Notes: generated by a model not told the origin, from the sequence alone. A DNA stretch of 64,000 nucleotides from Escherichia coli (GCF_013315695.1 NZ_CP054353.1); one strand, 5' to 3'; shown: positions 3,776 through 56,575, counted from the first letter of the stretch. Made by a program: numbers and translations.

Positions 3776-5209
3776 ATGCGATTTTCCAGATTTATCATCG
3801 GATTGACCAGCTGTATAGCGTTCAGTGTTCAGGCCGCAAATGTTGATGAGTACATTACTCAACTCCCCGCTGGTGCCAACCTTGCCCTGATGGTGCAAAA
3901 AGTCGGCGCGTCGGCCCCCGCTATTGATTACCACAGTCAGCAGATGGCGCTGCCCGCCAGCACGCAGAAAGTGATTACTGCGCTGGCGGCGTTGATTCAA
4001 CTCGGCCCCGATTTTCGTTTTACCACGACGCTTGAAACCAAAGGTAATGTGGAAAACGGTGTACTTAAGGGTGACTTAGTAGCGCGATTTGGTGCCGATC
4101 CGACGTTAAAACGTCAGGATATTCGCAATATGGTCGCGACTTTGAAAAAATCTGGCGTCAACCAAATCGATGGCAATGTGTTGATAGATACCTCCATTTT
4201 CGCCAGCCACGATAAAGCCCCCGGCTGGCCATGGAATGACATGACACAATGCTTTAGCGCTCCGCCTGCCGCCGCCATAGTTGACCGCAACTGTTTCTCC
4301 GTCTCGCTCTATAGTGCCCCAAAACCTGGTGATATGGCTTTTATACGCGTGGCATCTTATTACCCCGTTACGATGTTCAGCCAGGTACGCACCCTCCCCC
4401 GTGGTTCTGCCGAAGCGCAATACTGCGAGCTGGATGTGGTGCCAGGCGACCTGAACCGCTTTACGCTGACCGGATGCCTGCCACAACGTTCTGAGCCGCT
4501 CCCGTTGGCTTTTGCCGTGCAGGATGGTGCCAGCTATGCCGGGGCAATTCTGAAAGATGAGTTAAAACAGGCGGGTATCACCTGGAGTGGAACACTGCTG
4601 CGCCAGACTCAGGTTAACGAACCTGGAACGGTAGTTGCCAGTAAACAGTCGGCCCCGCTGCACGATCTGCTTAAGATTATGCTGAAAAAGTCAGACAACA
4701 TGATCGCCGATACGGTTTTCCGCATGATAGGCCATGCGCGCTTCAATGTGCCTGGAACATGGCGGGCCGGGTCGGACGCCGTGCGTCAGATCCTGCGCCA
4801 GCAAGCCGGTGTCGATATTGGAAATACCATTATTGCCGATGGTTCAGGGCTTTCGCGGCATAACCTGATTGCCCCCGCCACCATGATGCAGGTGCTGCAA
4901 TACATTGCCCAACACGACAATGAACTTAACTTTATCTCTATGCTGCCGCTGGCGGGCTATGACGGCTCTTTGCAGTACCGTGCAGGTCTGCATCAGGCGG
5001 GCGTGGATGGCAAAGTCTCAGCGAAAACCGGCTCGTTGCAGGGGGTATATAACCTGGCGGGATTCATTACCACGGCGAGCGGGCAACGAATGGCGTTTGT
5101 GCAATATCTTTCTGGCTATGCAGTAGAACCGGCGGATCAGCGTAATCGCCGTATTCCGTTGGTACGTTTTGAAAGCCGTTTGTATAAAGATATTTACCAG
5201 AACAATTAG
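3776..5209 (+). CDS. dacB: D-alanyl-D-alanine carboxypeptidase/endopeptidase PBP4
   Basis: 477-aa ORF MRFSRFIIGLTSCIAFSVQAANVDEYITQLPAGANLALMVQKVGASAPAIDYHSQQMALPASTQKVIT... (signal peptide plus active-site STQK). Confidence 0.95.
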   Translation: MRFSRFIIGLTSCIAFSVQAANVDEYITQLPAGANLALMVQKVGASAPAIDYHSQQMALPASTQKVITALAALIQLGPDFRFTTTLETKGNVENGVLKGDLVARFGADPTLKRQDIRNMVATLKKSGVNQIDGNVLIDTSIFASHDKAPGWPWNDMTQCFSAPPAAAIVDRNCFSVSLYSAPKPGDMAFIRVASYYPVTMFSQVRTLPRGSAEAQYCELDVVPGDLNRFTLTGCLPQRSEPLPLAFAVQDGASYAGAILKDELKQAGITWSGTLLRQTQVNEPGTVVASKQSAPLHDLLKIMLKKSDNMIADTVFRMIGHARFNVPGTWRAGSDAVRQILRQQAGVDIGNTIIADGSGLSRHNLIAPATMMQVLQYIAQHDNELNFISMLPLAGYDGSLQYRAGLHQAGVDGKVSAKTGSLQGVYNLAGFITTASGQRMAFVQYLSGYAVEPADQRNRRIPLVRFESRLYKDIYQNN

Positions 5210-52731: not shown

Positions 52732-53087
52732 TTACAATGACCACATCTCAAGAATGTGTAGTCACGCAAGTTTAGCGTTTATGCATTTAATTGCCGTAAT
52801 CAGGAACCTAACTTACGTAATTAACAGTCGCTTATGCATTAGCGCAACATTCCAACAGGTGGTGACAATATACCCTACCGTTCAGCCAAAACAACATCAA
52901 TTTGATAACAATTAATTTACTTTTAAGCAGAATTTGCATGCCGTGACGCAGGCATGTTTCTCAATAACGAAATTTGATAAAATCCCGCTCTTTCATAACA
53001 TTATTTCAGCCTTCTTCAGGGCTGACTGTTTGCATAAAAATTCATCTGTATGCACAATAATGTTGTATCAACCACCATATCGGGTGA

Positions 53088-53561
<474 letters not shown>

Positions 53562-53924
53562 TCTCTGCCCCGTCGCTTCTGGCGGCGGGGAAAATGTTGC
53601 TTATCCCTCTCAAACCCCTGCTTTCCCCTGCGATTAATTTAACGAATAGTGCGTTTTACTGCGACATATCATTCACACAATGAATGCATATAGTAAAAAA
53701 GCACATTATGCAAAATTCATTATCTAATTGAAAACACGATAATTAACAATAAATTATCGTGTTTTTAATTCTTTTTTGTTATTAAAATTCACATTTTTAA
53801 CACTTAGTATCAACTGAAACAGTTAGCGTGGTATTAATTAGTTCAATAATTAGTGTATACTTGATTTTGTGATATGGGTCACGAAACAAAGGCCCAGCTA
53901 AAAGATTATGTCGAGGTAAAAATC

Positions 53925-54188
53925 ATGAAAATCAAAACCACTGTTGCTGCATTAAGCGTACTTTCTGTTCTCTCTTTCGGTGCATTCGCTGCCGACTCCA
54001 TTGATGCTGCACAAGCACAAAATCGTGAAGCAATCGGGACCGTATCCGTAAGTGGTGTGGCGTCTTCGCCAATGGATATGCGTGAAATGCTGAACAAAAA
54101 AGCAGAAGAGAAAGGCGCAACGGCCTACCAGATTACTGAAGCTCGTAGCGGTGACACCTGGCACGCTACGGCTGAACTGTACAAATAA
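53925..54188 (+). CDS. yhcN: Periplasmic stress-induced protein YhcN (YdgH/BhsA/McbA family)
   Basis: Trimmed to MKIKTTVAALSVLSVLSFGAFAADSIDAAQAQNREAIGTVSVSGVASSPMDMREMLNKKAEEKGATAYQITEARSGDTWHATAELYK (87 aa; signal peptide). Confidence 0.9.
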   Translation: MKIKTTVAALSVLSVLSFGAFAADSIDAAQAQNREAIGTVSVSGVASSPMDMREMLNKKAEEKGATAYQITEARSGDTWHATAELYK

Positions 54189-54215
54189 ACCCTCATCATC
54201 TTGTCCGACGATATT

Positions 54216-54240
54216 GCCCCCGGTTCGGGGGCTTTTTTTT
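54216..54240. terminator. Intrinsic terminator between convergent yhcN and yhcO
   Basis: GCCCCCGG-ttcg-GGGGGC followed by TTTTTTTT. Confidence 0.75.
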
Positions 54241-54243
54241 GCG

Positions 54244-54516
54244 CTAATGACGAACATTAAAACGCAAATGCCCTTCCAGCTCTTCCTCTGCCTCATCAAA
54301 CAGCAATATTAACGCGCCAAAACGGCGACGCGTTTTCTCTCCCAGATGAACAAATTCAATCTCAAGTGGTAGCGGCAGGACATCGTTCATTAACACATCC
54401 CATAGAGAGTCGAGATCGCGTACTTTATCTTTTGCCAGACCAAAGGTTTGGCTGAAGTCGCGGTAAAAATCCTCCTGACTCTCAATCTCATCAAAATCAA
54501 AGGTATAAATATTCAT
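54244..54516 (-). CDS. yhcO: Barstar-like protein YhcO
   Basis: 90-aa [93 protein letters not shown]; barstar similarity is from prior knowledge of YhcO. Confidence 0.88.
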
Positions 54517-54607
54517 CTGTTGCCACCGTCACGTTTCGCGGCGAGTTCTGCCGTTCATTGCTAAGTATAGCCATGAAAAAACCGACGCTTTTGGCGTCGG
54601 TTTTGAC

Positions 54608-56575
54608 TTAACTATCGGTCAACGCATGTTGATACTTATGGAGCATACCCGTAAGCCGATGTACTGGTTCCGTCACCTGCGGTGGCGCTTGCCAGATGCG
54701 TAGCTTTTCCTGGTAGATTTCCAGTTCTTCCAGCAACTGGCCAAAGTACCGACGACGTTTATCATCGCTACGGGCAGATATCACATGGTCTGCTGTGCGG
54801 CGCATTTGCCGGTGAAATGCCGATAAATCCTCGTTAACCGGGATCGGCGCATCACGCAGGCGCTGGTGCGCGATAATCATCGTCAGTGCCAGGCGAAATT
54901 TCGGCAAATCCCCTGGGAACTTATTCATCAGCAAAAACAGCTGCTGATAAAGTGCCGGGAGGTGATTCTCTTTACGACGTGCCACATTGGTAGTCATCGC
55001 GGAAACAGCGGCAGAAACAAACTGATTAAGCAGTACACGTCCAGTCCTGTCGCGCGATTTATCCCGCACCAGCAAAATAACGGTGAACGCGAGCACACAG
55101 CCGACGATTTGCCCTAATGCGCTGTCGAGAAACTGACTGAAATGGAAAGTCATCGGGTTATCCAGCACGATAATATTTATGGTGCTGGCCAGCGCCCCCA
55201 TCGAGCCCAGTCGCCGTTTCTGTACTTCTATACCGAGGAAAAATCCCAGCACTGCCAGGCTAATACACAGCAATAACATGCTTTGTTGGGTATTAGGGAT
55301 AATCACCAAAAAGTAGAGCAGCCCTAACGGCAGCGCCGCCAGCGTCCCATAGATAAAGTCGATCGCCACCATGCGTGGATTCGGCAAACGCATTGCCAGT
55401 GACGTCACGACCGCAATCATCACCATTGCACCACTGCCGGAAGTCCAGCCCGTCCACAGCCAGAAAAGCGTGCCCAGAATGCAAGAAAGTGTGGTTCGCC
55501 AGAAGTTAACCATTGCATGATGACGTTCGGCTGACTCTACTTTTACTTCCGGTTCGCCTTGCAGGATCTCTTCTTCGGTGGCGTTAATTTTTGTGTTACT
55601 GATAACGCCGCGCTTGAGAAGCTGATAACGCGTTGCCGCCGCGACCCAGCTATAAATGGTAACAGGCGTTTCCCGTTCCCCGGTCCAGGCGATCACTCTC
55701 CGCAGGCGTTTGAGCTGCTTGTGGACGTCCTGCGCGGTTTCTACCGGCGTGTCAAAAAATTCGCGGAAAGTATCAGTGATCAATTCCGGGCGCGTATTCT
55801 GAATAAGATAAGTTTCGCAGGATTGTGTAATCAGCGTCAGCGATAGCGTATTGATCGCTTTTAAACGTCGATTGGCCCGCGCCCAGCGGGAAGATTCCAT
55901 ATTCAGGTTGCTGCGCATACCTTGTAACGCCGTAGTACGTCGCACCAGATCGCCCCAGGCTTTATCGACAACTTCACCATCGCCATGCTTGATACAGAGT
56001 TGCATTAATTGATATTGCGCGACCAGCAAACTTTCCAGCTCTCGATCCACTTCTTGTTTGATCGATCGCGGAGAAAAGAGCAAATCCGCCATAATTGCAC
56101 ACACAATACCGATAACGATCTCGCTACAACGTTCGACGGCAAACTGCGGCGTAAGCAATGGTTCCGGCTGAATGGTGATCACAATGATCAGCGCGGTATA
56201 ACCGGCCAGCCCCCACGCATACGAGTTTTCTATTCGTACCAGCGAGGATATCCAGGTACAAAAACCGGCCCAGATACAGCACACCAGAATCATCAATAAT
56301 GGTGCGCGGATCATCGCAATGATGATTACCAGTCCGGCAATACAGCCAATAAATGTGCCGATGATGCGCAAAAAGCCACGATAGCGAATGGCGCCAGAAT
56401 ACGGTTCACCTCCCGCAGCAAAGGCCGGACCGGCGGCAACAATCGCCGCTGTCAGTACCGCCCAGCGTGGCGTTTCCAGCTGGAAGTGAAAGCCAACAAA
56501 CAGCGCCAGTACAATGGCGGTCGCCAGTTTTACCGCAAAGCGAATATGTTGATTAGCAATGGACAAAATACCCAT
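54608..56575 (-). CDS. aaeB: p-Hydroxybenzoic acid efflux pump subunit AaeB
   Basis: 655-aa polytopic [52 protein letters not shown]... Confidence 0.94.

Follow-up and report, generated by a model that had tools for sequence, protein, structure and literature searches.

yhcO of Escherichia coli is probably the surviving immunity half of a lost barnase–barstar pair, a gene that has been maintained since the loss and that would encode a plug-type inhibitor of shifted specificity. In the history that we propose, an old, vertically inherited chromosomal operon just downstream of aaeXAB would have encoded an RNase of the barnase type, which was exported, and an inhibitor that stayed in the cytoplasm; synteny and phylogeny indicate that the barnase gene was deleted in the ancestor of Escherichia, Salmonella, Citrobacter, Enterobacter and Kosakonia and that the barstar gene stayed. 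The widowed yhcO has since been kept by purifying selection, and E. coli would transcribe it alone within the RpoS/acid-stress response. The case rests on a barnase partner at the yhcO locus, on living relatives that still have the pair, and on a widowed gene that is under selection with an altered interface. The initial annotation had described yhcO as an orphan barstar-like gene, either a remnant of a lost toxin-immunity pair or a guard against an RNase encoded elsewhere. The lost pair is strongly supported by barnase–barstar operons at the syntenic position downstream of aaeXAB in sister families, but the word remnant should not be read as decay, given the signs of purifying selection, the expression of the gene and its changed interface.

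The window, that is, the whole 64-kb stretch of E. coli chromosome that was analysed, has the gene order degS-mdh-argR-yhcN-yhcO-aaeB-aaeA-aaeX-aaeR, in which argR flanks yhcN and aaeB-aaeA-aaeX-aaeR flanks yhcO (Table 1). The ORFs lie at the coordinates first given, and the neighbours first named, a convergent yhcN and aaeXAB, are confirmed. The 55 bp between yhcN and yhcO include a GC hairpin with a T-run at 54216-54232. Both yhcN and yhcO are E. coli core genes, and the 1.2-kb locus that holds them was found in 5425 of 5426 complete E. coli genomes. One E. coli record, NZ_LT601384.1, has a match that breaks at query position 731, near window position 54230 in the yhcN–yhcO spacer, and resumes at a second place; such a break is suggestive of an insertion or rearrangement at this point in that strain.

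Table 1 Features of the yhcN–yhcO locus in window coordinates
Feature	Position	Strand	Description
yhcN CDS	53925..54188	+	87 aa; DUF1471/YdgH-BhsA family periplasmic stress protein
yhcN terminator	54216..54240	+	7-bp all-GC stem, loop of 3, T8; within the 55-bp gap between the convergent genes
yhcO CDS	54244..54516	-	Barstar-fold protein of 90 aa; stop codon TAG at 54246-54244
aaeB–yhcO spacer	54517..54607	-	91 bp; site of the barnase gene (often with an aldehyde dehydrogenase gene) in relatives
Candidate sigma-S-type -10 element, C(-13)+TATACT	54564..54570	-	Predicted; 48 nt upstream of the yhcO ATG
aaeB intrinsic-terminator-like hairpin	54576..54604	-	11-bp stem, 5-nt loop, U-run

That YhcO is a barstar homologue, as first stated, is borne out by a profile search, in which residues 1-81 of 90 score 37.6 bits (E 2.1e-9) with the Pfam family Barstar, PF01337, whose gathering score is 23.4, and by its 100% identity to PDB 2CX6; it is 77% identical to Salmonella 5F4C, and RefSeq annotates the locus as 'yhcO: barstar family protein'. 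Both PDB entries are titled 'ribonuclease inhibitor Barstar', a title that the depositors assigned by homology. The AF2 model of YhcO (pLDDT 96) has a TM score of 0.99 to 2CX6, of 0.80 to the barstar chain of 1BRS (rmsd 2.0 Å) and of 0.78-0.81 across the barstar chains of the barnase complexes 1BRS, 1B3S and 1BGS. YhcO shares with Bacillus amyloliquefaciens barstar (PF01337; 1BRS) the alpha/beta fold of three parallel strands and four helices at a similar length, and also the helix-2 LDxLWD motif and the equivalents of the helix-4 residues E76 and E80, at an identity of about 21%; in contrast to the Bacillus gene, yhcO has no adjoining barnase gene. The DxxxD acidic pair, which defines Imm-Barstar (PMC3482391), is present together with the Trp and the helix-4 glutamates, and its two members, D36 and D40 of YhcO (barstar D35 and D39), are invariant in our alignment of homologues, A1. 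The protein is acidic, with 21 D+E against 10 K+R. No NCBIfam model matches YhcO; the PADLOC library matches neither YhcO nor the Serratia barnase–barstar pair, and PHROG has no match for YhcO and weak ones only for the Serratia pair (E 6e-3 and 7e-4). The gene, its family assignment and its structure were already public, and the missing adjacent partner follows from the published genome.

The partner is found in other species. A HMMER library search returned 112 cluster representatives, of which the full-length ones were aligned as A1 and used to fetch at least 80 related loci from species-representative genomes, with incomplete sampling of the Enterobacteriaceae. With a Bacillus barnase query (checked against PDB 1A2P), phmmer placed a barnase gene immediately 5' of the barstar gene and co-oriented with it in 66 of the 80 related loci listed, so the view that homologues of yhcO consistently lack toxin partners clearly fails. 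Sixty-five of these barnase genes are intact and stop where the barstar gene starts; the remaining one is truncated by the edge of its contig. Among the six-frame ORFs of the 80 loci, the barnase homologues match the Bacillus enzyme with E-values of 1e-35 to 1e-43; they match PF00545, have a median identity of 54% to Bacillus barnase, and retain K27, E73, R83, R87 and H102 without exception (65/65). Each has an N-terminal hydrophobic, signal-like segment, which suggests that these enzymes are exported barnases. Independent gene calls with precomputed Pfam hits likewise give PF00545 followed by PF01337, and the source annotation of the enzymes is 'ribonuclease N/Ba'. Ten of the loci with the pair belong to Bacteroidota. 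Compared with B. amyloliquefaciens barnase, the enzymes of Enterobacterales and Bacteroidota show 49-60% identity, an unusually high value for different phyla, which suggests that the pair has spread horizontally.

The closest relatives of YhcO, at 50-57% identity, are the barstars, annotated 'barstar family protein', of the chromosomal barnase–barstar operons in Serratia, Yersinia, Rahnella, Hafnia and other Enterobacterales, whose C-terminal half is near-identical to that of YhcO (a stretch of 20 residues, sequence not shown). In the four genera named the pair lies downstream of aaeXAB, the position of yhcO in E. coli. Unlike the yhcO locus, these operons include an exported barnase gene that translationally abuts the barstar gene, and their barstars have the ancestral interface F-G-x-N-L-D-A. 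The gene orders at aaeB, which independent gene calls and precomputed Pfam hits confirm, are as follows: aaeA-aaeB-barnase-barstar in ten Serratia loci; aaeB-aldehyde dehydrogenase-barnase-barstar in Yersinia, Rahnella, Rouxiella and Edaphovirga; aaeB-aldehyde dehydrogenase-yhcO in Enterobacter, Lelliottia, Citrobacter amalonaticus, Kosakonia and Pseudenterobacter; and aaeB-yhcO in E. coli and Salmonella. No barnase gene lies upstream of yhcO in the 12 orphan loci. Since loci with and without barnase share this aaeB-linked position, the barnase gene has been removed cleanly from its conserved place downstream of aaeXAB. In a neighbour-joining tree of the barstars that included the 12 barnase-less (orphan) proteins, these form one clade in 199 of 200 bootstraps, and its sister is the group of aaeB-linked barstars of the Yersiniaceae type.

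Loss of the toxin can be seen elsewhere in the order. In Hafnia psychrotolerans, aaeB is followed by a barnase gene with an in-frame internal deletion of residues ~52-119, which takes out E73, R83 and R87, and then by an intact barstar gene; in Edwardsiella ictaluri, the last 49 barnase codons remain beside an intact barstar gene. Both barstars keep the ancestral interface residues of the partnered type. The two species appear to represent independent, recent barnase losses in the same direction of decay. As to the older loss, the yhcO of Erwinia mallotivora is of the orphan type and lies in the complete gene order of the Enterobacteriaceae, so that the timing of that loss is provisional and a transfer may have taken place. 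Other Erwinia (five loci) and Pantoea have more distant barnase–barstar pairs, and the 4 kb fetched upstream of these contain no aaeB. Either the pair has two lineages or there was a transfer event. An Enterobacteriaceae-type yhcO, 71% identical to that of E. coli, is also present on a 422-bp contig labelled Hydrogenophaga intermedia, and its place in a betaproteobacterial assembly is probably due to contamination. The aldehyde dehydrogenase gene (~485 aa, PF00171) stands between aaeB and the barnase or barstar gene in 13 loci and is absent from aaeB in E. coli, Salmonella and Serratia. In the Salmonella locus (L004, positions 3900-4000), a relic of ~45 bp of its 3' end remains, which points to a second deletion at the aaeB–yhcO locus.

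The widowed gene does not evolve as a decaying one. Among orphans the median Nei-Gojobori dN/dS is ~0.10 (23 usable pairs, 22 of 45 being unusable), and among the partnered barstars of Serratia, Yersinia and Rahnella it is 0.08-0.10; these values are approximate, because dS is saturated between genera. Orphan yhcO is thus under purifying selection of about the same strength as partnered barstars, and mean pairwise identity is 71% in both groups. The distribution of constraint differs between them: helices 3 and 4 are more conserved in orphans than in partnered barstars (entropy 0.11 vs 0.29), and the loop and helix 2 are somewhat less so (0.75 vs 0.48).

The binding surface has been altered in part. 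We compared the 12 orphans with 66 partnered barstars from Enterobacterales and Bacteroidota in barstar numbering, at positions that we take, from the 1BRS literature, to contact barnase. Orphans keep L34, D35, L37, W38, D39, E76 and E80, each in 12/12. The rest of the partnered-type interface (Y/F30, G31, N33, A36 and T42) is not retained. Four positions are the same in all 66 partnered barstars and replaced in orphans: position 30 is F in partnered barstars and K in all orphans, position 31 is G and V (12/12), position 33 is N and D (9/12), and position 36 is A and S (12/12). B. amyloliquefaciens barstar has Y30, G31, N33 and A36 where YhcO has K, V, D and S, and it also lacks the one-residue insertion after position 44, which is present in all 12 orphans and in 2 of the 66 partnered barstars. 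Position 42 is T in 56 of the 66 partnered barstars and variable in orphans. A divergent metagenome orphan with the same synteny reads Q-V-x-D-L-D-S over the motif. The PF01337 score is 57.8 bits for a Serratia barstar and 37.6 bits for YhcO. Given that four positions that never vary in partnered barstars have been replaced, the binding specificity of YhcO has probably shifted.

The spacer in which relatives have the toxin gene holds, in E. coli, only the aaeB terminator hairpin and a possible promoter. A tblastn search of the window and the orphan loci with 66 barnase homologues found no barnase remnant in the spacer or in those loci. Weak matches of locus L069 to L003, L010 and L012, considered as a possible remnant, proved to be the conserved 3' end of the aldehyde dehydrogenase gene in another frame. 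The aaeB hairpin (-19.2 kcal/mol, z -6.5) is not listed by a terminator consensus scan; by its predicted fold, it would set yhcO transcription apart from aaeXAB. Between this hairpin and the start codon lies the candidate C(-13)TATACT element, which is conserved only in the two Escherichia loci and which we take to resemble the sigma-S -10 consensus. The element is consistent with the RpoS dependence of yhcO, which belongs to the RpoS regulon of O157:H7 (PMC2907692). Moreover, yhcO and yhcN are among the genes induced by a rapid acid shift (PMC2270276), and yhcO is among the genes activated by LldR (PMC10272880). The two LldR-box-like sequences of the 'yhcO' gSELEX peak in that study correspond to 54364-54380 and 54429-54445, inside the yhcO CDS rather than upstream of it, and its promoter-proximal reading may need to be re-checked. 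A Rfam scan of 53000-55000 gave sub-threshold matches only; the best, to the enterobacterial sRNA STnc240 (26 bits, cutoff 55), covers 54570-54642 on the minus strand, over the aaeB stop codon and terminator hairpin, and most likely reflects the aaeB terminator only.

Since yhcO is conserved, expressed and altered at its binding surface, the lone gene is kept for some function. YhcO would be a small, very acidic cytoplasmic protein that presents the helix-2 Asp-x-x-x-Asp/Trp motif and the helix-4 glutamates, the same residues with which barstar would plug the basic active-site cleft of its RNase. We infer that it most likely still binds tightly, in a 1:1 ratio, to a basic cleft of an RNase or an RNA-binding protein and blocks it, and is so still an acidic, stoichiometric inhibitor of the plug type. 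Against retained inhibition, the four replaced positions may reflect a complete loss of RNase binding, with the fold put to another use; the literature that mentions yhcO consists of expression lists or unrelated work, and we found no interaction or phenotype data for YhcO there. The target is not an adjacent barnase; candidates would be toxins of the barnase type that competitors inject, or else a new partner within the cell.

The explanations on offer differ in what YhcO would now bind. The second proposal of the initial annotation, protection from an RNase whose gene lies elsewhere, found no support for an E. coli enzyme of the barnase type and is in that form very unlikely. Toxin and immunity genes can in principle be unlinked, and our searches fall short of an exhaustive profile scan of the proteome, but every search that we made argues against such an enzyme. 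No barnase or RNase Sa was detected in the window (tblastn, six frames; best E 0.3), in keeping with the initial statement that no RNase gene adjoins yhcO. The barnase part of a Serratia operon has no match in 5426 complete E. coli genomes (blastn, word size 11), and 72 bp of the 3' half of its barstar gene matched yhcO in the same search. Among 72,556 plasmids, a barnase tblastn matched Bacillus and Clostridium records and two Proteus records, none of them Escherichia or Salmonella, and the best 120 of 563 barnase homologues include none named Escherichia, Salmonella, Citrobacter or Enterobacter. As these searches miss divergent domains inside large toxins, the absence of barnase from E. coli is likely rather than proven. 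A non-functional relic drifting to loss, or a lone horizontal acquisition that was never partnered here, is more improbable still: the Pfam score below that of partnered relatives would fit it, but dN/dS equals that of partnered barstars, the ORF is intact across genera and near-universal in E. coli, expression is regulated, and the exact synteny with barnase–barstar operons and the nested phylogeny oppose a lone acquisition.

It is possible, although short of likely, that YhcO serves as an orphan immunity protein against external toxins of the barnase family, for instance Rhs or T6SS effectors that end in a microbial-RNase domain; this would be a special case of our best explanation, with the target specified. 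In Salmonella SPI-6, PAAR-RhsA-Ribonuclease effectors have been catalogued whose immunity genes encode a Barstar domain (PMC10469887), and Tox-Barnase with Imm-Barstar is a polymorphic-toxin module of T6SS, Rhs and PVC systems (PMC3482391). The energetic hot-spot D35, W38, D39 and E76 is retained in YhcO, RpoS-controlled expression fits a crowded stationary phase, and cross-inhibition is conceivable in that barnases of different phyla share the same barstar-binding residues without variation. However, immunity is normally specific to the cognate toxin, orphan immunity genes usually reside in variable islands whereas yhcO is core genome at near-100% prevalence, and the replaced positions include a Phe-to-Lys change beside the loop that faces the basic surface of barnase. 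These replacements would also fit a re-targeting of YhcO to a new endogenous, non-barnase partner (another basic RNase, a BECR-fold toxin-antitoxin RNase or an RNA-binding protein, for example) in a housekeeping or stress role in stationary phase, a rather doubtful reading as it stands. Because they were fixed and then conserved in all 12 orphans, they speak for a new constraint rather than drift, and the lower entropy of helices 3 and 4, the core-genome status of yhcO, its place in the RpoS, acid and LldR regulons and the lack of a detected barnase-family gene in E. coli point the same way, although continued barnase recognition would explain the retained DxxxD/Trp motif just as well. We suggest only tentatively that the K/V/D/S replacements and the loop insertion, on the face that formerly bound barnase, mark a new target and that YhcO is an RpoS-controlled stationary-phase inhibitor of another endogenous RNase or RNA-binding protein. 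If so, re-specialised YhcO would be an immunity protein recruited into host physiology.

As the probable surviving half of a lost pair, yhcO can be set beside known systems. With the Imm-Barstar proteins that serve polymorphic toxin systems (Zhang et al. 2012, PMC3482391) it shares family and DxxxD signature, and, as in orphan immunity genes in general, a cognate toxin gene is missing. In contrast to both, which lie in toxin cassette arrays or variable islands, yhcO lies in the conserved core genome, and where Imm-Barstar belongs to Rhs, CDI and T6SS modules, yhcO would instead descend from a simple two-gene pair. We did not find the syntenic reconstruction of barnase loss or the derived interface in the searchable literature; together they are an incremental addition and not a new kind of system. 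They turn the 'orphan' label of an E. coli y-gene with a solved structure into a defined evolutionary case, one that illustrates the expected asymmetry in the decay of toxin-immunity pairs, where the immunity gene outlasts its toxin, either as a leftover or in a new use.

The 3' side of yhcO differs between the two groups as well. yhcN is a convergent neighbour outside the barstar system: its product scores 150.3 bits (cutoff 125) with NF033776, the NCBIfam equivalog 'peroxide/acid stress response protein YhcN', and E 6.8e-23 with PF07338, and has a signal-like segment at the N-terminus. The gene stands next to yhcO in orphan loci only (L001-L010 and L081-L083; Enterobacteriaceae genera, one Erwinia species and metagenome contigs) and the 11 aaeA-aaeB-barnase loci examined, ten from Serratia and one from Yersinia, lack it on the 3' side of barstar. 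Two tandem yhcN paralogues are present in Salmonella, Enterobacter, Lelliottia, Pseudenterobacter and Erwinia mallotivora (among the orphan loci L004-L010 and L081-L083), whereas E. coli and Citrobacter amalonaticus have one copy each. In Yersiniaceae and Hafniaceae, the barstar gene is followed instead by darP(yjgA)-pmbA-cybC (at 4300-7100 in L013, L021, L034 and L049; also in L084), genes that lie far from aaeB in E. coli, whereas Enterobacteriaceae have yhcN-argR-mdh-degS there; the contrast places a chromosomal rearrangement breakpoint on the 3' side of yhcO. Finally, the argR–yhcN spacer of E. coli, ~360 bp and AT-rich, contains an AT-rich inverted repeat at 53726-53770 on the plus strand, ~150 bp upstream of yhcN. 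With a 19-pair stem and a 7-nt loop followed by a T-run, the repeat was flagged as terminator-like and may serve as a regulator site or as a terminator distal to argR.
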